Part shown: piece by piece, positions 2,388-15,943 of the stretch
Numbering within the stretch: the first letter of the stretch is position 1
Layout of the letters: each line of letters begins with the position of its first letter
Assembly: GCF_014280195.1 (NCBI RefSeq)
Contig: NZ_CP047960.1
Coordinates: 1,560,001 to 1,592,000 of the forward strand
Origin: Synechococcus sp. A15-24
Lineage (GTDB): Bacteria > Cyanobacteriota > Cyanobacteriia > PCC-6307 > Cyanobiaceae
Length of the DNA stretch: 32,000 nt
Direction of reading: 5' to 3'
The notes under the pieces: model-generated
The model's input: the letters and a program-made list of their open reading frames with translations, nothing else
What the model was told of the DNA's origin: nothing
Database searches by the model: none
Translations under genes and position numbers: made by a program

Positions 2388-4691
2388 CTACAGCTCCAGC
2401 GGATCAGGATCCACCGCCAGAGCCACACCGCGGGGAAGTTCGTCCCAGAGGGTCTGCCCGGGGGGAAGCGGCAGGGGGGAGCCCACCGGACCGTGGAGCA
2501 GCAACTGCCATCGGCTGCGCCCTGCCACCCGTGCCACCGGGGCTGGGGCCGGCCCCAACAACCACCAGCCACGGTCGCGACAGAGAGGACGTACCCGTTC
2601 CGCCAGAACCGATGCCGCTGTGGCCGTGGCGCTGGCGGACACACCGGACAACCGCAGCAGACAGGCGCGGCTGAAGGGCACGAGCGCCGCCTCCCGCCGC
2701 AGCTGCACCTCCTGGGCCAGGAAATCCTCGTACCGGCCATCCACCAGATGACGAATCACGGGATGGTCTGGGCAGTAGGTCTGCACCAGCACCTGACCGG
2801 GGCGTTCGCCCCGCCCAGCACGACCCGCCAGCTGCATCAGCAATTGCAGAGCCTGTTCAGAGGCCCGTAGATCGGGACGGTGCAACAGGCCATCCGCCGC
2901 AAGCACCGCCGCCAGCGTCACCTGGGGAAGGTCCATGCCCTTGGCCAGCATCTGGGTTCCGATCAACACATCCGCCTCGCCGGAGGCAAAACGATCCAGC
3001 AAGCGACGGTGTCCGTCTCGACCACCGGTTGAGTCCCGGTCGAACCGGAGCAGCCGCAGCCCATCCAATTCCTGATTAAGCAACTCCATGACCTTCTGGG
3101 TTCCGGCACCGAAGGGCTTGAAGGCGGTGGACCCGCAATGGGCGCAACGGTTGCCGATTGCATCGCGGTGATCACACCAGTGACAACGCAGCCACTGACG
3201 ACCGCCGGAACCCCGGTGGACGGTGAGCGCCACATCACAGTTCGGGCACATCACCACCTCCCCGCAACTACGGCACCCCAGAAAAGGGCTGTAGCCCCGT
3301 CGTGGCACGAGGATCACCGCCTGTTCCCCCTTCTCCGGCAGCTCGGCCAATCGATCCATCAGCGGCCGACTGATCAGTCGACGGTGTCCTTCGGCGAGCT
3401 CATGCCGCATGTCCACCACATGGACCGGAGGCAGAGACTGCTGAGAGATCCGCTGGGTCAGACGTCCCAGATGCAGGGGCCCATCGGGATGCAGTTGCAC
3501 CCAGCTGTCCAGTGATGGGGTGGCGCTGCCGAGCACCAGGCGCCCACCACTGGCACGAATCCGATCCAAAGCCAGGTCCCTGGCGTGATAGCAGGGCATC
3601 GGGGAGTCCTGTTTGTAGGAGCTGTCGTGTTCCTCATCCAGCACCACCAACCCCAGCGGCGAGAGGGGAATGAACACCGCTGAGCGGGTTCCCACCACCA
3701 GCAGAGGCTGCTCGGGCGCAAGGCAGCGACGCCACACCTGGAGGCGCTCCCGATCCCGGCAACCGCTGTGATATTCGAGAACCCTGGAGCCGAAGCGACG
3801 CCGGCAACGATCCACCAACTGAGGAATCAGGCCGATCTCAGGGGTGAGGATCAACACATGACGGCCGGCCGCCAACTCCTGCTCCGCCAACTGCAGGTAC
3901 ACCTCGGTCTTGCCGGACCCGGTGATGCCCCAGAGCAGCATCCCCTCCCCATCGGGAACGGCCTCAAAGCGCTGCATCACCTGCTGCTGCTCACTGGTGA
4001 GGGGCCTGGCGGCCTCCAGCGGGGCAGCAGACATCACCCCTGTGGAGAGGGGACGCCGATCCCGGCGCACCCAGCCTTTTGCCTCCATGGACCGGACCAT
4101 GGCAGGACTGAAGCCGGAAGCTTCCAGCGAGCGCTGCCACAGTCCCGACCCCGCAGCATCCAGCGCATCCAGGAGTTGCTGCTGGCGGAACGTGAGGCGG
4201 GGAGCGGGCTCGGGTGGCTGCAACCGCTCCACCCACAACAATGCACGACCTTCAGACAGGGTCCGGGCCTGGCCCAGCCAACCGGCGGGGAGGGCTGCTT
4301 TCAGCATCCGGAACACACTGAGATGGCAGCGTTCAGCCACCCCCTCAAGCCAGAGGCGCCACTGGGGGTCTACTGCAGCTCGTTGCACCAGGCCTTCAAC
4401 CGCCTGAAGCTTCTCCGGCACGGTGGCTCCAAGGGACACGTTGTATCTGGCAACCACCAATCCATGCAGAGGACGTCCCCTCAACCGCACCCGCACCAGG
4501 TCGCCGGCCTGCAACCCAAGCGCTGCATCGGCGCTGTAGGTGAAGGTCCTGCCCTCACGCCCAGCCTCAAGCCAGACCTCAACGAGATCAGGAGGCTTGT
4601 CGGAAGGGTTGCAAAGGCCCGAAAACTTCATTAAGGTGGAAATGTTGACTAAGTATTGGTCGACACTGCGCTCGATCCAGCGGGAAGACAC
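2388..4691 (-). CDS. priA: primosomal protein N' (replication restart helicase PriA)
   Basis: 767 aa. Walker A GITGSGKTEV and DEAH-like VLDEEHD are present. So are the Cys-rich zinc-binding segments CRSCGEVVMCPNCDVALTVH...CHWCDH...CAHCGS typical of PriA. The start is uncertain (ATG at 4691 or ATG at 4631). Confidence 0.88.
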   Translation of the reverse strand: MSSRWIERSVDQYLVNISTLMKFSGLCNPSDKPPDLVEVWLEAGREGRTFTYSADAALGLQAGDLVRVRLRGRPLHGLVVARYNVSLGATVPEKLQAVEGLVQRAAVDPQWRLWLEGVAERCHLSVFRMLKAALPAGWLGQARTLSEGRALLWVERLQPPEPAPRLTFRQQQLLDALDAAGSGLWQRSLEASGFSPAMVRSMEAKGWVRRDRRPLSTGVMSAAPLEAARPLTSEQQQVMQRFEAVPDGEGMLLWGITGSGKTEVYLQLAEQELAAGRHVLILTPEIGLIPQLVDRCRRRFGSRVLEYHSGCRDRERLQVWRRCLAPEQPLLVVGTRSAVFIPLSPLGLVVLDEEHDSSYKQDSPMPCYHARDLALDRIRASGGRLVLGSATPSLDSWVQLHPDGPLHLGRLTQRISQQSLPPVHVVDMRHELAEGHRRLISRPLMDRLAELPEKGEQAVILVPRRGYSPFLGCRSCGEVVMCPNCDVALTVHRGSGGRQWLRCHWCDHRDAIGNRCAHCGSTAFKPFGAGTQKVMELLNQELDGLRLLRFDRDSTGGRDGHRRLLDRFASGEADVLIGTQMLAKGMDLPQVTLAAVLAADGLLHRPDLRASEQALQLLMQLAGRAGRGERPGQVLVQTYCPDHPVIRHLVDGRYEDFLAQEVQLRREAALVPFSRACLLRLSGVSASATATAASVLAERVRPLCRDRGWWLLGPAPAPVARVAGRSRWQLLLHGPVGSPLPLPPGQTLWDELPRGVALAVDPDPLEL

Positions 4692-4944: not shown

Positions 4945-6360
4945 ATGAGCCCTGCCGCCACCAAAACCGCCAAGCCGGACATCGTTCTGCTGGCCAACTC
5001 CGAGGGAGAGGTGGGGGAGGTCATGCCAACCGCTGAAACCAAGAAGGTTCCAGCCCGACGTCGCAGCAGTAAGGCCAGCGCCAAGGATCTAACAACAGAA
5101 GCCGACGAGCTTTTAGCCGCCGCCGACCCGAAGAAGGCAGAGGCCAGCAAAACAAAAGACAAAGCAGCTCCGAAGGCCAGCACGAAAAAGACCACGGCCA
5201 AGGCAGCAACAGCCAAGAAACCCTCTGCCAAGAAAGCCACCGCCAAGAAAGCCAGCAGCAAGACCATCGCTGCGACTGATGCGGCACCAGCCAAGGCTGT
5301 GGTGGCCAAGCCTGAAATCGTGCTGTCTCCAGAGGAGAAAGCCAAAGCCATTGCTGCTGAGAAGGCAGCGAAAGCCAAGGCGCTGGCCAGCATCAAGATC
5401 GGCCCGAAGGGTGTCTACACCGAAGACTCCATTCGGGTGTATCTCCAGGAAATCGGACGTATCCGCCTGCTCCGGCCCGATGAGGAGATTGAGCTGGCTC
5501 GGAAAATCGCCGATCTGCTCCACCTTGAAGAGCTCGCCGCTCAATTCGAGAGCGACAACGGCCGGGAACCCGACAACAAGGAATGGGCGGCTCTAGTGGA
5601 GATGCCCCTGATCCGCTTCCGCCGACGCCTGATGCTCGGACGTCGGGCCAAGGAAAAGATGGTGCAGTCCAACCTGCGCCTGGTGGTGTCCATCGCCAAG
5701 AAGTACATGAACCGGGGCCTGAGCTTCCAGGACCTGATCCAAGAGGGCAGCCTCGGCCTGATTCGCGCCGCCGAGAAGTTTGATCACGAGAAGGGCTACA
5801 AGTTCTCCACGTACGCCACCTGGTGGATCCGGCAGGCCATCACCCGTGCCATCGCGGATCAATCCCGCACCATTCGCCTGCCGGTGCACCTCTACGAGAC
5901 GATTTCCCGCATCAAGAAAACCACCAAGGTCCTCTCCCAGGAATTCGGTCGTAAGCCAACCGAAGAAGAAATTGCTGAATCGATGGAGATGACCATCGAG
6001 AAGTTGCGCTTCATCGCCAAGAGTGCCCAGTTGCCCATCTCCCTGGAAACCCCCATCGGCAAGGAAGAAGACTCGCGCCTCGGGGACTTCATCGAAGCCG
6101 ACATTGAGAATCCTGAGCAGGACGTGGCCAAAAATCTTCTTCGGGAAGATCTGGAAGGAGTTCTCGCCACCCTCAGCCCCCGCGAACGGGATGTACTGCG
6201 GCTGCGCTATGGCCTGGATGACGGACGGATGAAGACCCTCGAAGAGATCGGTCAGATTTTCGATGTAACCCGCGAACGCATCCGCCAGATCGAAGCCAAG
6301 GCCCTGCGCAAACTGCGCCACCCCAACCGCAACGGTGTTCTGAAGGAGTACATCAAATGA
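4945..6360 (+). CDS. rpoD: RNA polymerase primary (group 1) sigma-70 factor
   Basis: 471 aa. Region 2 ([29 protein letters not shown]) and region 4.2 ([30 protein letters not shown]) are present, with a long Ala/Lys-rich N-terminal extension. Confidence 0.93.
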
Positions 6361-6441
6361 TCCTCAAGCATCGCTGAAAAGCGCTGCTATTACTGAGTTC
6401 ACAGATACAGCCTTGACAACTGCACGCCGAGGGACCTCAAT

Positions 6442-8292
6442 ATGTACCTCGGCTTGTACCTCACTCTGGCTTCTGCACCGTTCCGCTATGCCTGGAGAAA
6501 GGGCAACGCTTGGTGGTTCAAGCGGCGAGTGCCTGCCAGTTGCAGAGAGGCCTTAGGCACCGCCCAATGGGCGTACAGGCTCGGGCCGATCAACGACGAG
6601 AACGGCTGTCGGATCAAAGCGGCGGAACACGAGAGAAAGACCAACGAGCTGATCAGCACGATCACAAGCGAAGTGCCGCCGTCGCCAGCAGCCGTGGAGC
6701 TGCTGGCACGGCGCATCGCAGCCAAGACCAACAACAAGCGTTTGGAAGTGCCTGAGGGCATCGCTGGCGAATCGGCGTTGCTCCTGAACAAGGCCAAGCG
6801 GTCCGCCATCGCTCAACACCTGAAAGACGACACGGCAGTGGTGCCGCTTGAGGCGGCACCAACGACTGTGGAACAGACAAAAGACAAGAACGGCGGCGTC
6901 CGACTCGCAACGCAACTGCCTGACGCAAGACACCTGCTGACGAGGTTTGAACTCACTGAGGCCAAGCTCCAACAGATCGAAGACGCGACAGCAGGCGAGA
7001 CGTTGACGATGGAAGTAGGACAAATTGCGGCATCGACGGAAGAAGCTCCGTCTGGACTGCTGACAAGCGACAAAGAGCTGGCGGGAGAGCTGAAGAAAAC
7101 GAGAGCCCGCCTGATCGATGAAGGGCAAGACGTCGATGGCGATCTGCTGCGCCGAGCCACGGCATTAGTCGCCCACCTCCAGGGCAAGCACGAGGGGAAA
7201 AGGCTGAGCGTCAATCGCGACGGCTTTGAAATGGTGCTGGAGCCAGAGAAGGTTCCCGCCGTCAAACGCAAATTGGAAGACCTGCCACGTCTGTACATCG
7301 AAGCCAAGAAAGGGGCTTACGACACCAAGCACAAGGCCATGGAGCATTTCATTGAGGTAACTTGGAAACAACATCTGGATCAGACATCCATCAACGACAG
7401 ACACAAGCTGATCAGCGATCACCAACTGAAAGGCAGGGAGAAACGCGGAAAGAAAGCCTGGAAGGATTCCACCTTCATGACAAACATGCGGCACCTGAAC
7501 TCACTGTTCAAATGGGCGGTCGACATGCAATATATAGAGAAAAATCCAGTTGAAGGATGGTCGAACGTATGGACACCTGAGAAGTCAGAGACAGACGAAG
7601 AAGACGACAGCAAGGGATTCACAGTTGATCAAATCAGGAAGATCGACAGGATCATCACTAACGGTATTTTCGACAACCCTGAAGACTTACATCTTTGGAT
7701 CTTGCAAAGATGCTTCGGAGGACGCATCTCCGAATTTGCTGGCCTACGTCACTCTGACTTCAGAGAATTCAAAGGTCAAAAGTGTATCTTTGTCGTCAAG
7801 CATTCTCTCCGATCACTCAAGAACGGAAAGACAAAGAAGATCCTCCCAGTGCCAGCTTGCATCGAATGGCTGTGGGATACCTATGCAAGCGATGACAAAA
7901 GTGTGATTTGGCCGAAGTTCATGACCCAACGAAAAGACAAGATGGGTAACATGAGGACAGAATGGGCAACTACCTTTGCTGGCAATCTTGGAAGATGGAT
8001 GAGGAAATATGCAAAAGACAACCAACTTGAACGCGAACTCCCGAATGAATACTGGACAACAAAAGTATTCAGACGTTCTATTGGATCAATCCTGAGAGAT
8101 CTCACTGGAGAAGATCACGTGAGCCGAGACCACCTCAATCTCATGAGAGGCCACGCCGACGGATCCATTGCCAGGATCTACGACGACTCAGAAGTCAGGC
8201 AGGTCGCCAGGGCAGCCGAGATCTACGCGAGGGTCACAGGCTTCGACAAAATCGCCCTGGCCATGGGGGAGTCTGAGTGTCTTACTGTCTGA
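6442..8292 (+). CDS. tyrosine-type site-specific recombinase / integrase with a long N-terminal extension
   Basis: 616 aa. The N-terminal RKGNAWWFKRRVPASCREALG resembles the Y-x-RRRVP motif seen at the N-termini of many integrases. The C-terminal catalytic residues read by eye are GGRISEFAGLRHSDF (Arg), LKNGKTKKILPVP (Lys), FRRSIGSIL (Arg) and LMRGHADGSIARIYDD (His, Tyr). Confidence 0.8.
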   Translation: MYLGLYLTLASAPFRYAWRKGNAWWFKRRVPASCREALGTAQWAYRLGPINDENGCRIKAAEHERKTNELISTITSEVPPSPAAVELLARRIAAKTNNKRLEVPEGIAGESALLLNKAKRSAIAQHLKDDTAVVPLEAAPTTVEQTKDKNGGVRLATQLPDARHLLTRFELTEAKLQQIEDATAGETLTMEVGQIAASTEEAPSGLLTSDKELAGELKKTRARLIDEGQDVDGDLLRRATALVAHLQGKHEGKRLSVNRDGFEMVLEPEKVPAVKRKLEDLPRLYIEAKKGAYDTKHKAMEHFIEVTWKQHLDQTSINDRHKLISDHQLKGREKRGKKAWKDSTFMTNMRHLNSLFKWAVDMQYIEKNPVEGWSNVWTPEKSETDEEDDSKGFTVDQIRKIDRIITNGIFDNPEDLHLWILQRCFGGRISEFAGLRHSDFREFKGQKCIFVVKHSLRSLKNGKTKKILPVPACIEWLWDTYASDDKSVIWPKFMTQRKDKMGNMRTEWATTFAGNLGRWMRKYAKDNQLERELPNEYWTTKVFRRSIGSILRDLTGEDHVSRDHLNLMRGHADGSIARIYDDSEVRQVARAAEIYARVTGFDKIALAMGESECLTV

Positions 8293-8346
8293 GAGAAAAT
8301 AAGAAAACACCCGTACCTGAAAAGCCGCTGTCTGAGCACAGGCACT

Positions 8347-8383
8347 AAAAAAGCCGAGTGCCCAAAATCAATCGGACACTCGG
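8347..8383 (-). terminator. rho-independent terminator of the VirE-like gene
   Basis: On the minus strand there is a CCGAGTG / CACTCGG 7-bp stem (8354-8360 and 8377-8383) followed by C and T6 (8352-8347). It starts 18 nt downstream of the stop at 8401. Confidence 0.6.
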
Positions 8384-8400
8384 ACAGAGGCGATGGAAGA

Positions 8401-9687
8401 TCAGAACAGTGGGCCGTCGCCGAACTGCATTGCGCGTTCTTGGTCCTCGATCTCCAGGCGCAACTCGTGGTTACACCGATAGACATTTTGGCGTGATCCC
8501 TCGATCCACTCCTTCTGTCCTGCCTTGATCCACTTGATCGGGGCAATACCTCGGCCAACCATCCCTTTGTTGCGTTCATAGTCCTTCTCTTCACCGTTGA
8601 AGACTTCCTTCCAACATTCGATGCCTCGGAAGTAAGGACGCTGTTTTGCAAATCGGGCAATTTCAAGCGTCATGGCAACTTCCTGCATGTACTGAAGGTT
8701 GTCTTCGTCAGCAAGCTCAGAAAGCTCAAGCGGAAGCATTGGAAGTTCTCCTTCTTTGTATGCCAAGACTGCTGCCAGCAAGATGGAATCTCGCTCAGCC
8801 AAGAGCTGGTCAGTGTCAATGGGATCGACCTTGGCCTTCTGAACAGTAATGATCTGATAGCGCCTATTGCCAGTTGGATCGCTGAGGAAGTTAGCTTCGT
8901 CGTTAATTAAGCCGCAAAGAACAAACCCACGCTTATGGGATTCTGAAGTTCGACCGTATTGAGGAACAAAGTCATCCCTAACGCTCGTCACGAAAGCCTT
9001 GAAGCTGTCAGTAGCTTCAAGACGTCCAGAGACGCGCTTGCCCAACTCAGTTAGCTCTACAGCGGCAAACTGATGGATGGTCTGCAATACCTTGGCAGTG
9101 ACATCACCCGACTTTGGCATTGAGAAACCAGCAGTGATGTAGTCACCACCGACCAAGGCAGACCAGAACGAAGATTTACGGCAACCACCTTCCACTTGCA
9201 AAGTGACGATGTGGTCATACTTGAAGCCAGGCTCATACTGCCTAGCAACGAAGGCAATCAACCATTTACGTAAATAGACCGAATAGAGCTCTTCAAACTT
9301 GGATTCACCCGTAGGTCTCAAATAACGAGCAACTAGCGAATCAAGGTTTGCAGGCTCCAGCAAACCTTCTTCGTAACTCCCCAACAGTCCATAAAGATAC
9401 TGACGAACAGGGTGATAGCTGTTCTTCAATGCAGCGCGGATCATGGCATCCATTGCAAGAGCCTTCGTAACTTCAACGTCAAGCTCTTCTGACAAGATGA
9501 AGTAAGCCTGCTGAGTATCTCGGTTCAGCAGAATCTCTCCATCCAGTTCAACATCGTTGCGCATCTCGTTGAACTTGAGCCTGTCACCAAATAACTCAGT
9601 CAACAGTTTCACCACTTCACGCGGTGATGTAATTCGATTAGTAATGGCAGTCATGGCGGGATATCTCTTGGTGCTCGGCGACAGCAC
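8401..9687 (-). CDS. VirE / phage-plasmid primase-helicase-like (P-loop NTPase-like) replication protein
   Basis: 428 aa. The central block IVTLQVEGGCRKSSFWSALVGG...FAAVELTELG...FVPQYGRTSESHKRGFVLCGLINDEANFLSDPTGNRRYQIITV resembles the virulence-associated protein E / D5-like NTPase layout. Position 9687 is a GTG; an alternative ATG start lies at 9654. Confidence 0.6.
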   Translation of the reverse strand: MLSPSTKRYPAMTAITNRITSPREVVKLLTELFGDRLKFNEMRNDVELDGEILLNRDTQQAYFILSEELDVEVTKALAMDAMIRAALKNSYHPVRQYLYGLLGSYEEGLLEPANLDSLVARYLRPTGESKFEELYSVYLRKWLIAFVARQYEPGFKYDHIVTLQVEGGCRKSSFWSALVGGDYITAGFSMPKSGDVTAKVLQTIHQFAAVELTELGKRVSGRLEATDSFKAFVTSVRDDFVPQYGRTSESHKRGFVLCGLINDEANFLSDPTGNRRYQIITVQKAKVDPIDTDQLLAERDSILLAAVLAYKEGELPMLPLELSELADEDNLQYMQEVAMTLEIARFAKQRPYFRGIECWKEVFNGEEKDYERNKGMVGRGIAPIKWIKAGQKEWIEGSRQNVYRCNHELRLEIEDQERAMQFGDGPLF

Positions 9688-9726
9688 AAAAAAAAGCCGA
9701 TCAGCAATCCAATGAAGGGGGAAGCC

Positions 9727-9888
9727 TTAGAGCTTCCCTTCGATCACCTGCTTTGCATAAGCCGTTGCTGCATGGCGGATCAACACAGAACGCGAGACAT
9801 TCTTCAGCCCAGCAGCCTCATCGATTATCCTCAATTGATCAGGAAGAAAGCGAGAACCTTTGGGTGAGTATGTGTTTAGATTCGCCAT
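9727..9888 (-). CDS. ribbon-helix-helix (CopG/Arc-like) DNA-binding protein
   Basis: 53 aa from the ATG at 9888: MANLNTYSPKGSRFLPDQLRIIDEAAGLKNVSRSVLIRHAATAYAKQVIEGKL. This gives a beta-strand (SRFLP) plus two helices, the typical RHH pattern. It sits 39 nt upstream of the VirE-like gene. Confidence 0.55.
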   Translation of the reverse strand: MANLNTYSPKGSRFLPDQLRIIDEAAGLKNVSRSVLIRHAATAYAKQVIEGKL

Positions 9889-9994
9889 AGAGAAAGAAAC
9901 AGGGGCGCCCCTTATAAACGCCCCTGACAGCAAGTGAATGGACCGCCAATCGCACGCGCCGAGTTACGCGTACCCTTTAATTTTAGCGGCAAAT

Positions 9995-10024
9995 ATTGAA
10001 CAAAGAGCACGTTTTGGCTGTCAA
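9995..10024 (-). promoter_or_regulatory. candidate sigma-70-type promoter for the RHH/VirE-like genes
   Basis: The minus strand reads TTGACA (10024-10019), an 18-nt spacer, then TTCAAT (10000-9995). Downstream lies the 12-bp perfect palindrome AGGGGCGCCCCT (9901-9912), just ahead of the RHH ATG. Confidence 0.35.
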
Positions 10025-10032
10025 TAGCACTA

Positions 10033-10320
10033 TCAACGATGCCTTTTCTTGATGCGCACAACTGCGCCAGCAGAAGACCAGACTTCTTCAATCTCGTCAT
10101 CACTAACCATGCTCAAAGCATCGGCCCTTGAATCACTGGTAGGACGCAATCTCGCGTCCATCAGCTCACTTTGATTAGTACGAGAAAGTTGCTGAAGCCA
10201 GGCATTTTGGAGCCTGTCCAGATAGTCTTGCGTGGCTTGCTGCGCCTTTAGTGGCGCAGTGTGCTTCCAGCCCGATGGAAGTGGAGTGCCAGCAGGTGCG
10301 TGTGCTTGTACGTTGATCAT
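10033..10320 (-). CDS. hypothetical small protein (95 aa), translationally coupled to the upstream gene
   Basis: The ATG at 10320 overlaps the TGA of the upstream ORF (ATGA overlap). The product is MINVQAHAPAGTPLPSGW...VVRIKKRHR. No family was recognised. Confidence 0.45.
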   Translation of the reverse strand: MINVQAHAPAGTPLPSGWKHTAPLKAQQATQDYLDRLQNAWLQQLSRTNQSELMDARLRPTSDSRADALSMVSDDEIEEVWSSAGAVVRIKKRHR

Positions 10321-10613
10321 TCGTCCAGTCGTTGGGAAATGCGATTTCGTTGAATTACCTCGGCAGTTTCCAGAAGAGTGATCGCGTGAGCAAGCTCGTC
10401 CTCGCTCTCCATCCACAGCGCCGATGCATGTCTGACTTCATGGGTCATACCGAGAGTGCGCGCTTCCAAAAGCGCCATTTCCAACCCTGCGGGTTTCACT
10501 CCAAGAAGCTTGCAAAGAGAAAAGTGACGCTGCTCGTTTAAACGAGAACACCTATTCTTCCAGAGTTCACACTCCAGCAAATTGTCTGGGGAAGGAACAC
10601 ACCTTGTGCCCAT
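10317..10613 (-). CDS. hypothetical small protein (98 aa), first gene of the leftward island operon
   Basis: ATG start at 10613 and a stop overlapping the next start. A possible helix-turn-helix-like stretch (FSLCKLLGVKPAGLEMALLEAR) is not diagnostic. Confidence 0.45.
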   Translation of the reverse strand: MGTRCVPSPDNLLECELWKNRCSRLNEQRHFSLCKLLGVKPAGLEMALLEARTLGMTHEVRHASALWMESEDELAHAITLLETAEVIQRNRISQRLDE

Positions 10614-10661
10614 AATTACATCACTACGTATAAAACTATTCTAACGACGCTAAATCAAACA

Positions 10662-10677
10662 ACGTGCCCGAGCACGT
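10662..10677. promoter_or_regulatory. candidate operator palindrome upstream of the leftward island operon
   Basis: ACGTGC-CCGA-GCACGT has perfect 6-bp inverted arms. It lies 49-64 nt upstream of the ATG at 10613. A TAGAAT -10-like hexamer (minus strand, 10643-10638) lies between it and the start. Confidence 0.3.
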
Positions 10678-10749
10678 CAACACAAACTGATCTAAAAGGC
10701 AGCAGATTTGACAATGGTGGGGCAAGCGAAGATGCCCTTACAAACGGTG

Positions 10750-11433
10750 TTATTGCGCTGTGCGTTCTAAACCAAGTCGTTTCATCGTTCTCGCCACCTG
10801 AGTTGGTTGCCAAGCGGTCTTGCCAGCAGGCGTTTTGACGCCTGCTGCCATCAACGCATCAGCAATTTGAGCGAGCGTTGCGGTGTTCGCAGTGAAGGCA
10901 GACAGAAAGCCGCGAAGCCTTTCTGCCTCTGAATCCGCCTTTGCTTGCTGAGCAGCCCTTGCTCGTTCTTGATTTGGCCGCAGCCCTCCCAACTTCACCC
11001 CGCGAGCCTTGGCTGACGCCAGGCCCGCCTTCGTTCTTGCACTGATGAATTCCCGCTCCTGCTCCGCCAGGGCTGAATAGATGTGGAGTTGGAATTTGTC
11101 CGCATGCGGCATCGAGGCCACCTTGAACTCCAGGCCCTCCTCCTCCAGCAGCGCAGCAATAAAGGAGACACGACGCGACAAGCGATCGAGACGAGCCGCC
11201 AGCAGCGTTACTCCAGTTGCCTTGCACTGCGCGATGGCTTTGGTCAGCTCAGGACGATCGTTGTCAGTTGCGGTTTCGACTTCTTGGTAGCTCCCAAGCT
11301 CTTCGCAGCCTTCAACGTCGGGGCAGCAAGCGCTCAGAAAAACGTACAAATTACGGCGCTGAGCATCCAGACCGTAATTGCGGCCGTTCTTGCTGTCATG
11401 CGACAGACTGAGGTAGGTGACGAAGTGACCCAT
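10750..11433 (-). CDS. small serine recombinase (resolvase/invertase family), copy A, with a non-canonical catalytic motif
   Basis: 227 aa from the ATG at 11433, which is the start shared with copy B. Motifs are YLSLS (expected Y-x-R-x-S), ARLDRLSRR, EQEREFISARTKAGL and a C-terminal HTH-like TLAQIADALMAAGVKTPAGKTAWQPTQV. About 91% aa identity to copy B by hand alignment. Confidence 0.8.
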   Translation of the reverse strand: MGHFVTYLSLSHDSKNGRNYGLDAQRRNLYVFLSACCPDVEGCEELGSYQEVETATDNDRPELTKAIAQCKATGVTLLAARLDRLSRRVSFIAALLEEEGLEFKVASMPHADKFQLHIYSALAEQEREFISARTKAGLASAKARGVKLGGLRPNQERARAAQQAKADSEAERLRGFLSAFTANTATLAQIADALMAAGVKTPAGKTAWQPTQVARTMKRLGLERTAQ

Positions 11434-11439
11434 GAAGCC
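10771..11439 (-). repeat. 669-bp direct repeat, copy A (serine recombinase gene body)
   Basis: Aligns without gaps to 13207-13875 at an offset of 2436 bp. Similarity starts about 20 nt inside the 3' end of the gene and stops 6 nt upstream of the ATG (shared CATGAAGCC). Confidence 0.85.
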
Positions 11440-11826
11440 TTTGCGCAAGCCTCCTCTATTAACCATCTAAAACATCTCCACCGCATCAATTCCTTTCAAT
11501 TGCAGTACGAAGCAAAACATGAGGCAACAAGCTTCCGAATGCAACAGCGCTGGAATATGTCAGGCAGCGGTCAATAACTGGAAGCTCTGAATCATATCTA
11601 ATTAACCAAAAAAATTTAAATCAAAAGTGTCATTTTTTTTAACCAATCAAGTGCAACCGAGATATATAAAAATAGTCATTCTCCTCTGCCGAAGCCAGAT
11701 AAAAAGAGGGCGGGCCGTGGATAGAAAGTCACACCAAACCGCAATACTTCACGCCGGCCGAATAAAAACCCAATACCAAAGATCAAATATGATACATTTG
11801 AACCGACAAACCTCTAATTAGCCTCA

Positions 11827-13101
11827 ATGCACGAATTCAAAAAATATTTGTCAAATGAAAACTCTGCTCTCGAAAAATCATCCTCAAAAGGCATAAATTA
11901 TCCCTTTTGGTTCAAGAAAGACGATTTCAGCATAAACATCCAAGACCGCCAAGAAATCCCGGCAACGATACTCTCAATGGAGGGGAATAAAAATTATGAT
12001 AAGTTTGTGATTCCGTCAAATTTCAACTCACTAGCCGACCAACTTTGCAAGTACTACCTCTACCTTCTCAAGATAAGCAACCACAAAAACAATCGCCAAG
12101 AATTACAAATAATACCCAACGACACCATACTGAAAGCAATCCACAACTACCATTTTGCAGAAAATTGCTGCAAAATAGTAAATTCGCTCAGCATGCAGCC
12201 CATTACTATCTTTGAGACAGGACCTGGAGCTGGATTTCTAGCCCCATTACTCATTTCAAACATAGACCTCGAGAGATATATTCACTTTGATGTTTATCAA
12301 CCCTACTTTTCTTTGCAGAGCATTGGACTTAATTACTCTGAGACTTTAAACAATGAATATCACCATTACGACCTAAGCCAAAGCAATCAAAAATATAAAG
12401 ATCTAGCTGACAATGTCAGATTTCAATTTTCACCAGAATCGACAATAACAGCGACTAGCATTGGCTTGCCTTCACAGTTACTGAATCCTAATGCTCATAG
12501 AGCATTAATATCAATTCCCTGGTGGCATATCAATGACTTCAAAGAATCAGACACCAGTCCCGACTTATGGATTGCAAATGGCTGCCTGCAGGAAATGGAC
12601 AAGAAAGATTTTGTTGAATATATCAACATGGTTGATAAAAAAAGTACAGAAAATAGCCTTTTACTTGTTTGCGGGACTGGAGCGACAAGAGACTTCTACC
12701 TTGTTAATGAACTAATACAAAACTCAAATTTATATCCTATAGTAATGGCTGGTAAAAACATTCCTTTCCTTGAAGGAGAAAGATCATATCTACAGACAAT
12801 GCTTTTCGCGCATAAAAACAGTATCTATTTCAAAGACTCAAAAGGAAGTTGCAATAATGAATTATTTTTCAAATCAGATTTAATGACAGCTTGTTCAAGG
12901 AGCATTGTCGGTGAATTTTCCTCGAGGGTGACCATGGAGCACTCAGGAATGTATATACATCCGCAAGCTTACTTTGTAGCCAAGGCTCTCTTCAAGGAGA
13001 TCGGCTGCTTACCGAAGCCCAAAAGTACTGGACTATATATCGACTCAGTCGAACAGACATCGGAAGATGAGTTCACCACGAAATACAAATCAATCCAATA
13101 A
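11827..13101 (+). CDS. AT-rich orphan protein with a class I SAM-dependent methyltransferase-like motif
   Basis: 424 aa and about 35-40% GC in three hand-counted 60-nt lines. ITIFETGPGAGFLAPLL fits motif I (E-x-G-x-G-x-G). An acidic residue follows about 20 aa later (YIHFDVY), and DLWIANGCLQEM is motif II-like. I saw no DNA-methyltransferase DPPY/NPPY or PCQ motif. Confidence 0.45.
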   Translation: MHEFKKYLSNENSALEKSSSKGINYPFWFKKDDFSINIQDRQEIPATILSMEGNKNYDKFVIPSNFNSLADQLCKYYLYLLKISNHKNNRQELQIIPNDTILKAIHNYHFAENCCKIVNSLSMQPITIFETGPGAGFLAPLLISNIDLERYIHFDVYQPYFSLQSIGLNYSETLNNEYHHYDLSQSNQKYKDLADNVRFQFSPESTITATSIGLPSQLLNPNAHRALISIPWWHINDFKESDTSPDLWIANGCLQEMDKKDFVEYINMVDKKSTENSLLLVCGTGATRDFYLVNELIQNSNLYPIVMAGKNIPFLEGERSYLQTMLFAHKNSIYFKDSKGSCNNELFFKSDLMTACSRSIVGEFSSRVTMEHSGMYIHPQAYFVAKALFKEIGCLPKPKSTGLYIDSVEQTSEDEFTTKYKSIQ

Positions 13102-13194
13102 CTTACAATAAAAGCCAGTCAAGTCAATGCCAAGTTGAATAAAATTATAAAATAGTCTGCGTTAAAAATTGAAATCATGTTAGTTGAAAGATCA

Positions 13195-13869
13195 TCATCG
13201 CTCCAGACCAAGTCGCCTAATTGTTCTCGCAACTTGAGTCGGCTGCCAGACAGTTTTTCCTGCTGGTGTTTTCATACCAGCCGCCATGAGCGCTTCAGCA
13301 ATCTGAGCGAGCGTTGCGGTGTTGGTAGTGAATGCAGACAGAAAGCCGCGGAGCCTCTCTGCTTCTGAATCCGCCTTTGCTTGCTGAGCAGCCCTTGCTC
13401 GTTCTTGATTTGGCCGCAGTCCTCCCAGCTTCACTCCGCGGGCCTTGGCTGCCGCCAGGCCAGCTTTCGTTCTTGCGCTGATGAACTCCCGCTCCTGCTC
13501 CGCCAGGGCTGAATAAATGTGGAGTTGGAACTTATCCGCGTGTGGCATCGAAGCCACCTTGAATTCCAAGCCCTTCTCTTCCAGCAGCGAGGCGATAAAG
13601 GAGACACGACGCGACAAGCGATCAAGACGCGCCACGAGCAGCGTTGCTCCTGTTGCCTTGCACTGCGCGATGGCTTTGGTCAGCTCAGGACGATCGTTGT
13701 CAGTTGCGGTTTCGACTTCTTGGTAGCTCCCAAGCTCTTCGCAGCCATCAGCATCAGGGCAGCAAGCGCTCAAGAAGACATCTAAGTCGCGCCGCTGAGC
13801 GTCGAGGCCGTAATTACTGCCGTTTTTGCTGTCGCGAGACAAGCGGAGGTAGGCGACGAACTGACCCAT
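13195..13869 (-). CDS. small serine recombinase (resolvase/invertase family), copy B, canonical motifs
   Basis: 224 aa. Motifs are YLRLSRD (Y-x-R-x-S with the nucleophile Ser), ARLDRLSRR, EQEREFISARTKAGL and a C-terminal HTH-like segment. Confidence 0.85.
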   Translation of the reverse strand: MGQFVAYLRLSRDSKNGSNYGLDAQRRDLDVFLSACCPDADGCEELGSYQEVETATDNDRPELTKAIAQCKATGATLLVARLDRLSRRVSFIASLLEEKGLEFKVASMPHADKFQLHIYSALAEQEREFISARTKAGLAAAKARGVKLGGLRPNQERARAAQQAKADSEAERLRGFLSAFTTNTATLAQIAEALMAAGMKTPAGKTVWQPTQVARTIRRLGLER

Positions 13870-13875
13870 GAAGCC
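13207..13875 (-). repeat. 669-bp direct repeat, copy B (serine recombinase gene body)
   Basis: Gap-free alignment to 10771-11439, with roughly 85-90% nucleotide identity by eye. Confidence 0.85.
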
Positions 13876-14046
13876 AATTTACGCCGGCCAACGGACGTTG
13901 ACCTCGTAAAACGGTCAGTTGAGCGGTCGGCCGAGATGTCTGAATCCGTTGTTTTCCTATATCCGAGCTCTCTGTAATGACCCAGAGCACTTTCACTACA
14001 AACGAAACAACCTGGTACCCACCTCGGTACCTCACCTGGTATCTCG

Positions 14047-14366
14047 TCCGCTCCCAAGCCTTTGGCCCAGCTTGGGTTTCAGCCGAGAGCGGAAAACATC
14101 AAGTAAGTCCTGCAGGAGCCCTTCAGGGCTCCATCCCCGGCAGCAACTTCACCAGTAGCCAGACGCAGAGAATGATTGCCATGAGCACGTAAGCCTCGTT
14201 CACTGCACCTCTTCAAGTGATCAAAGTTTGGCAGGACTGCCACATCACATAAGTACATCTGCACCTACCTAGGCTCCCCCAGCCGCCCTATAAGGGTGAA
14301 GAGGGAATTGAGACGCCCTCCTCACACGGAAGAGATCAAACCCTGGCGGAAACCGGGGTTTTTTTT
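14047..14366 (+). ncRNA. candidate structured non-coding RNA, or displaced 3' UTR of rpoD
   Basis: I found no convincing ORF on either strand. Nested helices can be read directly: CCGCTC-CCAAGC...GCTTGG...GAGCGG (14048-14092), GGAGCCC-TTCA-GGGCTCC (14115-14132), TGGCAG-GA-CTGCCA (14229-14242) and GTGAAGAGGG...CCCTCCTCAC (14296-14325). The stretch ends in a strong + strand terminator. Confidence 0.3.
14338..14366 (+). terminator. rho-independent terminator (+ strand; possibly bidirectional)
   Basis: AAACCCUGG-CGGAAA-CCGGGGUUU stem-loop followed by a run of 8 T (14359-14366). No + strand CDS lies upstream. The minus-strand gene ending at 14410 faces it, but has only TTT after the hairpin in that orientation. 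Confidence 0.65.
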
Positions 14367-14409: not shown

Positions 14410-14886
14410 TTAGTCCTCAAAACTCTCCGTAAATTCTTGAAACGCGCGTTTCAGTCGCTCCACCGGTGTTTCCTCCAGGGGGCACTCCTGGGAGGTCTGG
14501 GTCGCGTAAGCCTGCAACAGGAGGCCATCGGGTTCAAGGACTGAGGCCACGGCATGCTTGAACAACACCAGGTTGCTCTGGGGAGTGAGTCCACTGAGGA
14601 AAGGGGTCAAGGTGAAGCCCTCAGCCTCGCTGTCGCAGCTAAGCACCCGCCTGGGGCGAATCAATTGATAAGCAGGCTGACCGTCGCCATCAGTGGTGGT
14701 GCGCAACCGTGCCATGAGCAACTCACCACTGCTTAAAAGGAGAAGGCGAATGGTGCCCTCTGCCATCAGAGGCAGCTGGGGCTCGTCCGACGACCCACCT
14801 GTCACGGACGACGAACTCGACAACGTGGCCTGACGTACACCGTTCACAACTGGGCCTGGCATACATCGACGGGCTGATGGCGACAA
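14410..14886 (-). CDS. conserved hypothetical protein (start uncertain)
   Basis: 158 aa ORF divergent from hemC. Alternative ATG starts lie at 14862 and 14766 (MAEGTIRLLLLSSGELL...). Codon usage is like the core genes, and no family was recognised. Confidence 0.5.
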   Translation of the reverse strand: MSPSARRCMPGPVVNGVRQATLSSSSSVTGGSSDEPQLPLMAEGTIRLLLLSSGELLMARLRTTTDGDGQPAYQLIRPRRVLSCDSEAEGFTLTPFLSGLTPQSNLVLFKHAVASVLEPDGLLLQAYATQTSQECPLEETPVERLKRAFQEFTESFED

Positions 14887-14989: not shown

Positions 14990-15943
14990 ATGGCTCTCAC
15001 CGAACTGCGCATCGCCTCACGTCGCAGTCAGCTGGCGATGGTGCAGACCAACTGGGTGAAGGCGGAGTTGGAGAAAGCCCACCCTGGACTCACCATCATG
15101 GTGGAGGCGATGGCCACGCAGGGGGACAAGATCCTGGATGTGGCTCTGGCCAAGATCGGCGACAAGGGCTTGTTCACCAAGGAACTGGAAGCGCAGATGC
15201 TGGTGGGACGCGCGGACATCGCCGTCCATTCCCTCAAGGATTTACCCACCAACCTGCCTGAGGGCCTGATGCTGGGCTGCATCAGCGAACGGGAAGACCC
15301 CGCCGACGCACTGGTCGTGAATGCCAAGAATCAGGCTTTCAAGCTCGACACCCTTCCCCAAGGAGCGGTGGTGGGCACCAGCTCCCTGCGCCGGCTGGCA
15401 CAGCTGCGTCACCACTACCCCCACCTGATCTTCAAGGACGTTCGCGGCAACGTGATCACGCGCCTTGAGAAGCTCGACTCAGGCGACTACGACTGTCTGA
15501 TCCTGGCGGCCGCTGGCCTTAGCCGCCTGGGATTCGGCGACCGGATCCACCAGATCATCCCCGGTGACATTTCTCTTCATGCCGTTGGCCAGGGCGCCCT
15601 TGGCATCGAATGCGTGGAATGGAAACCAGAGGTTCTGGAAATCATCAAGGTGCTGGAGCACACCACCACCTCCCGCCGCTGTCTGGCAGAACGCGCCTTC
15701 CTGCGAGAGCTGGAGGGGGGCTGCCAGGTGCCGATTGGTGTTAACAGCCAGATCAGCAATGACGACCTCACCCTCACGGGCATGGTGGCAAGCCTGGATG
15801 GCAGGCGCCTGATCCGCGATGAGGCCAGTGGTTCCGCTGCTGACCCCGAGTCCATCGGCATCGAGCTGGCCGGCAAACTCAAGCAGCAGGGCGCAGGAGC
15901 CATCCTCAAGGAAATCTTTGATGAGGTCCGTCCCGAGGCCTGA
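14990..15943 (+). CDS. hemC: hydroxymethylbilane synthase (porphobilinogen deaminase)
   Basis: 317 aa. [39 protein letters not shown] and RGNVITRL are present. The cofactor Cys region [11 protein letters not shown] is also present. Confidence 0.92.

Follow-up and report, generated by a model that had tools for sequence, protein, structure and literature searches.

What kind of DNA lies between rpoD and hemC in Synechococcus sp. A15-24, a clade III strain, where exactly does it begin and end, and how could it have come there? In our study we used a window of the A15-24 chromosome, that is, the whole analysed stretch of 32,000 nucleotides to which all positions given below refer, in which the gene of the principal sigma factor, rpoD (4945-6360, plus strand), is followed by several kilobases of mostly lower GC content before the conserved genes resume. 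We can confirm the island, which proves to be a single site-specific integrative element. We consider it highly probable that the segment 6357-14102 is an intact, horizontally acquired, cargo-type and tycheposon-like element which targets the 3' end of rpoD. Its backbone consists of an integrase gene (int), genes for a VapE-type helicase and an RHH regulator, two small genes and a gene for a small serine recombinase.

The conserved core flanks of the window have a GC content of 0.58-0.69. It decreases to 0.45-0.52 over approximately 7250-11000, reaches a minimum of 0.36-0.39 over 11500-13000, and is again at least 0.55 beyond about 13250. Relatives' loci were collected by scanning species-representative genomes with HemC, and in the resulting 80 loci the order argB, DUF3153 gene, priA, rpoD, (DUF6561 gene), hemC is kept across marine Synechococcus and Prochlorococcus. 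Loci with an empty site were found among them (L002, L003, L006, L011, L022, L030, L034, L036, L040 and L042); here rpoD is joined to the DUF6561 gene or hemC, with only about 200-360 nt from the rpoD stop to the next gene. A preliminary description of this DNA, made from the letters alone, had proposed an integrative island at the rpoD end between conserved core genes, and the drop in GC, the gene content and the empty site in relatives all bear this out. The absence of a tRNA target, also claimed there, agrees with the ARAGORN search, which detected neither tRNA nor tmRNA genes across the 32 kb, and Rfam at gathering and at permissive thresholds reported no family in the window.

The exact borders were obtained from the flanks. 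Nucleotide homology of the left flank with 68 other loci ends at 6356-6362, which is the rpoD stop (outliers at 6365 and 6372), whereas homology of the right flank restarts at 14123 according to BLAST and at 14096 when aligned by eye. Positions 14096-14106 read ACATCAAGTAA and are followed by a hairpin and a small gene common to L011, one of the empty-site relatives, in which the natural rpoD end is GGAATACATCAAGTAAG; the right copy matches it. The rpoD gene of the window itself terminates at 6345-6360 with GGAGTACATCAAATGA. A search of the 32 kb for ACATCAARTRA gave two matches only, at 6350 and 14096, while 0.05 would be expected by chance. The 7-bp core shared by both ends, ACATCAA, spans the end of Tyr-Ile-Lys, as it contains the two last bases of the Tyr codon, the Ile codon and the two first bases of the Lys codon.

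The left attachment site, attL (6350-6360, plus strand), is composed of the core at 6350-6356 followed by element-derived ATGA, and reads, from host to element, GGAGT-ACATCAA-ATGATCC. The right one, attR (14096-14106, plus strand), reads from element to host GCGGAAA-ACATCAA-GTAAGTCC; its core (14096-14102) and the adjoining GTAA form the original rpoD end (Ile-Lys-stop), now displaced. From both junctions we infer the chromosomal site attB as GGAGTACATCAAGTAAGTCC (approximately GGAGT-ACATCAA-GTAAG) and the site of the element, attP, as GCGGAAAACATCAAATGATCC (approximately GCGGAAA-ACATCAA-ATGATCC). The element proper thus comprises 6357-14102, or 7,746 bp. Since it provides the third base of the last codon together with a TGA stop (6357-6360), the RpoD protein is unchanged, while the original stop survives, displaced, at attR. 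Earlier, borders at about 6446 and about 14040 (right end 14046) had been assumed, with insertion behind the rpoD stop codon. The location at the rpoD end was right, but the position has to be corrected: the cores lie at 6350-6356 and 14096-14102, the sequence of the element starts at 6357, and the insertion is located within the 3' end of the gene, which is regenerated. A circular junction proposed on the basis of the former borders, 14039 joined to 6446, was rejected, as it joins internal GTACCTC triplets and not crossover points.

Homologs of the integrase are few, and all of them point to the same site. We found five protein clusters among 5.8 billion, one more copy among 241 million JGI metagenome records, also integrated, and a further copy in the isolate Synechococcus sp. 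MU1643 (L087), which was reached via a search with one of the serine recombinases, SR2. All eight distinct int instances (L081, L082, L083/84/85, L086, L087, L088, L089 and the window) directly follow the 3' end of rpoD; in no copy with readable context was the integrase found away from rpoD, and no other integrases were present among the 89 fetched loci. Integrase identity to the window copy is 57% in L081, with a full rpoD upstream and a convergent VapE gene downstream, and 61% in L082, which has an rpoD tail and a VapE gene. In further copies an rpoD tail precedes integrases of 70% (L088), 82% (L089), 88% (L083/84/85) and 92% identity (L086). L081 represents a second complete element, of metagenomic origin, with attR (CACATCAAGTAA) 6.46 kb past attL and GTAC-type repeats before attR, and the same core-bounded arrangement at the rpoD end is found in both L081 and MU1643. 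The host gene beyond the L081 element is apparently a glycosyltransferase gene and not hemC, as judged by eye from its first codons; because this downstream context differs, the target is rpoD itself and not its neighbourhood. We are thus dealing with a rare element family that has a very divergent integrase and strict specificity for the 3' end of rpoD, although its class of mechanism is a familiar one.

Concerning the core itself, the 11-nt sequence ACATCAA(A/G)TGA is doubled in tandem (ACATCAAATGAACATCAAGTGA) on the attL side in L083/84/85 and L086, while the window has a single copy; in MU1643 the doubling is present on the attR side and at an internal junction. It would fit an attP with two cores, with crossover at either of them.

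The int gene (6442-8292, plus strand) encodes a large divergent integrase of 616 amino acids (aa), probably of the tyrosine type, in which a long linker joins an N-terminus resembling DUF6538 to a catalytic region at the C-terminus. It matches PHROG_1, annotated 'integrase', with an E-value of 2.9e-15 (aa 265-595), and phrog_216 with 3.4e-07; in Pfam there are weak matches to DUF6538 at the N-terminus and to Phage_int_SAM_5. Motifs were assigned by eye: GGRISEFAGLRHSDF (Arg I), LKNGKTKKILPVP (Lys), TKVFRRS, read as Lys-x-x-Arg with the first His of R-K-H-R-H/W-Y replaced by Lys, and RGHADGSIARIY (His and the Tyr nucleophile). All four are conserved in the homologs. The gene is uneven in composition: GC is host-like (about 0.60) at 6442-7250, where the poorly conserved linker behind the DUF6538-like N-terminus and ahead of the catalytic region is encoded, and 0.45-0.52 at 7250-8292. 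As the MU1643 copy shows the same step, it belongs to the gene family as such and does not result from local amelioration.

The ends of the element contain further conserved signals, which we examined in an alignment of the P' arms of eight elements (alignment A6). Invariant are the core ACATCAA.TG, CTTGAC and CCTCAAT, and three GTACCTC repeats are kept in all eight. In the window these direct repeats (GGACCTC, GTACCTC, GTACCTC; plus strand) start at 6432, 6444 and 6456 and occupy 6432-6462 with 12-nt spacing; the P arm has a corresponding set (GTACCCA, GTACCTC, GTATCTC; plus strand) at 14015, 14027 and 14039 (14015-14045), also spaced by 12 nt. Both ends thus carry a GTACCTC-like triplet about 50-110 nt inward of the border; of the four exact occurrences of GTACCTC in the window, three sit at the element ends, with both ends represented, and the right-end repeats have equivalents at the right end of L081. 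As the repeats are kept although the reading frame in L081 differs, they are DNA signals and not codons. On sequence grounds the triplets on both arms are probably arm-type integrase sites; alternatively, the left one is a putative operator.

Upstream of int a promoter-like pair is present on the plus strand, TTGACA (6413-6418) and CTCAAT (6436-6441) with a 17-nt spacer, which may act as a promoter. Since the left triplet extends over the -10-like box and the start of int, autoregulation of int would be possible. Occurrence of TTGACA-17 nt-CTCAAT in 8/8 elements, overlapped by the repeats, argues for int having its own regulated promoter. Just past the new rpoD stop, in the P' arm, lies a stem-loop with a GAAA loop (6368-6387, plus strand), in which 86% of the alignment cells are paired over the eight elements and two pairs have compensatory changes; only 2 of 500 shuffles attain the observed pairing. 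It has no U-tract and is not an intrinsic terminator, nor was any other found between rpoD and int, and folding of the spacer is not more stable than that of shuffled sequence (z = -0.48), which is in agreement with the earlier remark that only a weak hairpin separates the two genes. Read-through of rpoD transcription into int is possible.

The best material for comparison is MU1643, which has the same backbone at the same rpoD locus but other cargo: two T5orf172-domain proteins and a 219-aa protein. Amino acid identity between both elements amounts to 88.6% for the integrase, 88% for the small protein o98, 82% for the RHH regulator, 70% for the second small protein, o127, and 55% for VapE; the single serine recombinase of MU1643 is 96% identical to SR2. 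Host proteins of A15-24 and MU1643 are far more diverged than the integrase (PriA 72%, the DUF3153 protein 52% aa identity), which indicates horizontal spread. L002, the nearest relative of MU1643 in our set (91% nucleotide identity over priA-rpoD), has an empty site. On the nucleotide level, window 6005-8321 aligns with 5228-7545 of the reverse-complemented MU1643 locus (87%), 9671-11439 with 8921-10690 (83%), 13208-13910 with 10023-10725 (90%), and 13953-14102, containing the P arm, with 13199-13349 (85%). This block comparison leaves 11440-13207 specific for the window and agrees with the earlier view of a mosaic island.

In the same orientation, MU1643 contains between the element and attR a 157-bp remnant (13354-13511) in which nothing but 70 nt of P' arm and 77 nt of P arm is left; through it a natural attP-like junction, GCGGAAAACATCAAATGAACATCAAGTGATCCTCAAG, arises ahead of the final attR. 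Judged by this arrangement, the remnant bears the signature of tandem site-specific integration followed by decay; it could alternatively be a non-autonomous mini-element mobilised in trans by the integrase, or a deletion scar.

Convergent with int, on the minus strand, are the genes of the presumed replication and control module. The VapE/VirE-type (D5-like) helicase is encoded at 8401-9687 (PF05272, 1.7e-39), and homologs occupy the same position in L081, L082 and MU1643. The protein contains a helicase-type domain alone (aa 130-334); it matches PHROG DNA helicase/primase families with E-values down to 3.7e-40, but no primase domain was detected by Pfam or PHROGs, so of the former label 'VirE/primase-helicase-like' the helicase part holds and the primase part does not. 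The operon is followed by an intrinsic terminator (8354-8383, minus strand; 12-bp stem and T-run), identical in sequence in L086. The RHH (CopG-like) regulator is encoded at 9727-9933 (minus strand; PF01402, 4.7e-4), with ATG 9888 as the likely true start, giving 53 aa. The two small genes with no assigned function lie upstream: o127 (10033-10320, minus strand) and o98 (10317-10613, minus strand; 98 aa), which heads this leftward operon.

Coding capacity of the small genes was assessed by counting substitutions between the window and MU1643 at codon positions 1, 2 and 3. The counts of 13/9/57 for o98 and 6/4/18 for RHH indicate coding sequences; for o127 they are 9/7/25 in its own frame, which indicates coding only from ATG 10320, that is 95 aa and not 127. 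This ATG overlaps the o98 stop (ATGA), and the o98 frame is constrained in the overlap region. Homologs of o98 (31% identical) and o127 are also present in L081. For another open reading frame (ORF) of 63 aa, at 9912-10103, the substitution pattern relative to MU1643 fails to support coding, and it was discarded as a gene. Genes of the element are intact and under purifying selection.

The right third is formed by two recombinase genes and the cargo. SR1 (10750-11433, or up to 11466; minus strand; PF00239, 2.6e-19) and SR2 (13195-13869, minus strand; PF00239, 4.9e-24), which adjoins the P arm, are small serine recombinases of the resolvase/invertase type, with a resolvase N-terminal domain carrying the active-site Ser and a C-terminal helix-turn-helix (HTH) domain. 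Both have weak HTH_62 matches and an intact YL(R/S)LS..(D)AQ motif. The family is very abundant in picocyanobacteria (more than 5,000 matches at E <= 1e-20). SR1 is contiguous with the backbone block 9671-11439. Between them lies cargo424 (11827-13101, plus strand), an AT-rich ORF of 424 aa with GC 0.37. It is an ORFan, whose sole close match is its own entry in Synechococcus sp. A15-24 (100% identical, hypothetical protein). An exhaustive HMMER search of 1.84 billion representatives gave 19 relatives, two of them besides the protein itself with E < 1e-30. Several relatives have weak matches to Methyltransf_23/25/11/12, and of the PDB profile matches of cargo424, all weak, 14/18 are S-adenosylmethionine (SAM)-dependent methyltransferases (best E = 0.0055). 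With the invariant G-x-G-x-G motif of the family (ETGPGAG), these similarities suggest a putative divergent class I SAM-dependent methyltransferase. Cargo differs among A15-24, MU1643 and L081. In the window the specific segment 11440-13207 (1.77 kb, GC 0.37) consists of the SR1 upstream region and the cargo, and in MU1643 the cargo (2.5 kb) lies between the recombinase upstream region and the P arm; from both positions it follows that the cargo slot adjoins the recombinase gene.

How SR1, cargo424 and SR2 came together is a separate question, and it is conceivable, though we rather lean away from it, that this part only (10750-13869) has an origin of its own, either as a nested unit moved by serine recombinases, for example a circular cassette, or as a deletion scar of tandem elements. 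The two recombinase genes are direct repeats (91% aa identity, 86.7% nucleotide identity over 677 nt) which flank the window-specific segment, MU1643 has a single such gene with cargo on its other side, and the family is listed for tycheposon-like islands of Synechococcus and Prochlorococcus. The homology of SR1 and SR2, however, ends precisely at start and stop codon, and neither a common res- or hix-like site up- or downstream of them nor convincing inverted repeats round the cargo could be found. The 13% nucleotide divergence between SR1 and SR2, mostly synonymous, is against recent duplication in situ and does not discriminate between cassette and scar, and as tandem integration is documented in MU1643, the deletion scenario is equally plausible.

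For the whole segment we favour the integrative, cargo-carrying element aimed at the rpoD end, which would work as follows. The 616-aa integrase would recombine attP of the element with a chromosomal attB made of the last rpoD codons and the stop, with crossover in or adjoining the 7-bp ACATCAA. The P' arm would bring the replacement last codon and TGA, and the old rpoD end would be left at attR. The excised circle is predicted to read GAGAGCGGAAA-ACATCAA-ATGATCCTCAAGCATCGC (14086-14102 joined to 6357-6375). After excision the circle may be replicated with help of the VapE-type helicase and controlled by the RHH regulator and the two small proteins. As genes for packaging or conjugation were not found, passage from cell to cell must depend on outside help, such as vesicles, phage capsids or transduction, as proposed for tycheposons.

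Several observations weigh against this interpretation. The identity of attL and attR is short (7 bp exact, 12/16), the metagenome scan gave integrated copies alone, and neither an excised circle nor attP of a free element was observed. No excisionase was recognised in the element. The integrase has no PF00589 match, either as the full protein or as the C-terminal domain alone (E <= 10), and no integrase match among PDB chains by sequence or profile; its AlphaFold2 model, built from a 6-sequence alignment, has a mean confidence (pLDDT) of 37 and is unusable, and its catalytic residues were read off the translation by eye, the first His being replaced by Lys. Some copies are decaying or rearranged: int is split in two ORFs in L088 (93-1985) and truncated in L089 (65-1908), and in L083 a TPR-repeat gene (2286-2861) follows int directly in the place expected for the VapE gene. 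Neither int nor VapE has relatives among 2.9 million IMG/VR viral contigs. Finally, the origin of the SR1-cargo-SR2 part fits more than one model, among which the data do not discriminate.

The preliminary description had also pointed to a PICI-like island, and the element could indeed be a minimal phage satellite of the PICI, PICMI or VEIME kind, which would excise on infection with a helper cyanophage, replicate by means of VapE and be packaged in helper capsids through a pac or cos site. The layout of int, small regulators and VapE and the size of 6.5-7.7 kb resemble satellites, PICI-like tycheposons exist, and o98, o127 or cargo424 could hide an unrecognised interference or packaging function. 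We regard it as unlikely all the same. Searches of Pfam, PHROGs, NCBIfam and PADLOC gave no match to terS, other terminase, capsid, portal or capsid-remodelling genes, as had been noticed for capsid and terminase before, nor to interference or any other packaging or transfer genes, and no PADLOC defence model matches any island protein. The lack of int and VapE in IMG/VR counts here too, and tblastn with the integrase against 50,697 phage genomes gave nothing. The variable region holds host-type cargo (methyltransferase-like, T5orf172, TPR, zinc-ribbon), which the tycheposon study takes as characteristic of cargo-type and not of PICI-like tycheposons. Compared with the published PICI, PICMI and VEIME (PMC10803314, PMC9618062), the element is alike in its integrase, small regulators, primase/helicase-type gene, compactness and specific site, and unlike in that no terS, capsid, capsid-redirecting or interference genes were found, that viral contig collections gave no copy, and that no helper phage is known.

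That the DNA of the rpoD-hemC spacer was merely swapped by homologous recombination through the conserved flanks, with the integrase as a passenger, is very improbable: many genomes do have low-GC integrase-free inserts (0.7 to more than 9 kb, GC 0.38-0.55) in the rpoD-DUF6561/hemC interval, and the 3' half of rpoD, 97-100% identical in aa across Synechococcus, is a good substrate for such recombination, but this would not explain the precise repeated ends at the 7-bp core, the P and P' arms conserved in eight hosts, the second complete copy with its own attR in L081, the tandem attP-like junction of MU1643, an integrase found nowhere else, or the lack of arm relics in the integrase-free inserts.

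Known protein-gene targets of integrative and conjugative elements and prophages include the 3' ends of guaA, fda, rpsI and rplL. A limited literature search revealed no described case of rpoD as an attachment site, the hits for rpoD being papers in which it served as a quantitative PCR reference, and a Synechococcus comparative-genomics paper that includes A15-24 makes no mention of the element. Among better studied systems the closest in layout are tycheposons, whose hallmarks are a tyrosine recombinase, hel_VirE, regulators, an excisionase and small serine recombinases (Hackl et al., bioRxiv 10.1101/2020.12.28.424599). They are built of integration, replication and cargo modules, occur as tandem and decayed copies, lack capsid and conjugation genes and use seven tRNA/tmRNA targets (bioRxiv 10.1101/2020.12.28.424599); tycheposon-like insertions of Synechococcus have been described at tRNA-Phe, also with TnpR-like resolvases (PMC8995045).

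The element shares with tycheposons marine picocyanobacterial hosts, a size of about 5-10 kb, a site-specific recombinase (here probably of the tyrosine type) at one end, a VirE/VapE replication module, regulators, small serine recombinases and variable cargo, the lack of capsid, conjugation and transposase genes, tandem and decayed copies, and a strain-variable locus. The match of integrase, regulators, VirE/VapE helicase and small serine recombinase with the hallmark list supports the tycheposon-like layout recognised earlier. It differs in its target, the 3' end of a protein gene (rpoD) instead of a tRNA or tmRNA gene of which a partial copy would be carried, in the identity between its att sites (a 7-bp core versus a partial tRNA of about 40 nt), and in its integrase, which at 616 aa has no Pfam Phage_integrase match and about eight known relatives. 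The best reading is that the element is tycheposon-like by function and layout, a likeness of gene set and organisation.

With respect to the target, the nearest parallel is the dusA-specific integrase family, an example of elements which enter the end of a protein gene and regenerate it (PMC4482086). In both cases attB is located in a conserved housekeeping ORF, a substitute gene end is supplied and integrase and target co-vary strictly. Here, however, the target is the principal sigma factor, the overlap with the ORF is three codons plus the stop, and the integrase is unrelated by sequence search.

Tycheposons and their kin are regarded as builders of the flexible genomic islands in the most abundant phototrophs of the ocean and have so far been tied to tRNA and tmRNA genes. 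As the same kind of vehicle lands in an essential rpoD/sigA gene and repairs it seamlessly, screens anchored on tRNA genes miss part of this mobilome. The system is compact and fully delimited: it has a 7-bp core, arm repeats and a single integrase, and A15-24 and MU1643 are available as cultured hosts. Coding as it does for the conserved C-terminus of RpoD, attB hardly varies across Synechococcus and Prochlorococcus. Such a divergent and highly site-specific integrase could become a tool for the genetics of marine picocyanobacteria, in which engineering is difficult.

Apart from this element, the rpoD-hemC spacer is a general flexible hotspot. Inserts of 0.8-7.6 kb, mostly of low GC, are present between rpoD and the DUF6561 gene or hemC in L005, L008, L012-L014, L021, L023, L026, L035, L037-L039 and L048; they encode TPR proteins, an FMN oxidoreductase, Coq4-like, DUF3104 and DUF6790 proteins, and in none of them was an integrase or a relic of the arms or core of the element found. 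In Prochlorococcus sp. MIT 0707 (L033) a 79-nt direct repeat, 98.7% identical (4486-4564 and 9419-9497), comprises the last 34 nt of rpoD and 45 nt downstream and flanks a 4.9-kb insert of GC 0.41 with tandem 84-aa ORFs of about 500-nt period and no Pfam match, a different kind of insertion at the same rpoD end. In the Synechococcus metagenome-assembled genome CUG2171 (L029) a 138-nt relic of the rpoD 3' end (8236-8373; aa 426-471, 87% identical) is found where an insert of at least 9.4 kb (GC 0.38) ends on the hemC side; the products of this insert, among them an ABC transporter, a TolC-like outer-membrane protein and one protein of 1,352 aa, resemble a type I secretion system. This relic suggests that another integrase with a longer att site used the same rpoD end.

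A broader idea, which we hold as doubtful, is that the rpoD 3' end of picocyanobacteria is, like a tRNA gene, a recurrent landing pad that seeds a flexible island through more than one recombination system, of which the inserts of L033 and L029 would be further examples, and that the element is possibly wired into rpoD. The element does replace the rpoD 3' untranslated region and terminator by its own conserved stem-loop and places int directly downstream. If the idea holds, rpoD transcription could feed int expression, or the element could alter the fate of rpoD mRNA, and its stability would be linked to housekeeping transcription.

Neighbouring genes and minor features of the locus complete the description. 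Upstream of rpoD are argB, the DUF3153 gene and priA (-); rpoD itself has Pfam matches to Sigma70 r1.2, r2, r3 and r4, and its product scores 726 bits on the NCBIfam equivalog NF005643 (cutoff 500). Past the element are the DUF6561 gene (14410-14886, minus strand) and hemC (14990-15943). Between attR and the former, at 14296-14361 (plus strand), we noticed a conserved element resembling a small RNA. It comprises a stem-loop on the 5' side (GAGGG...CCCTC), the stretch CCUCCUCACAC, which is unpaired, and a terminator of high GC content with a T-run. The unpaired part agrees with the Yfr1 motif ACUCCUCACAC (PMC2190773) at 10/11 positions, and the whole is about 90% identical in L005, L009, L010, L011 and others. 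Rfam did not report a Yfr1-like RNA here; the element probably represents Yfr1 or belongs to the Yfr10 family. Just past attR, at 14123-14203 (minus strand), there is also a 26-aa hydrophobic ORF, VNEAYVLMAIILCVWLLVKLLPGMEP, with a bidirectional hairpin (14114-14132) common to it and the original rpoD end. The ORF is conserved in L011 with mostly synonymous differences, the region aligns in L012, L013 and L019, and its product is likely a real small membrane protein.

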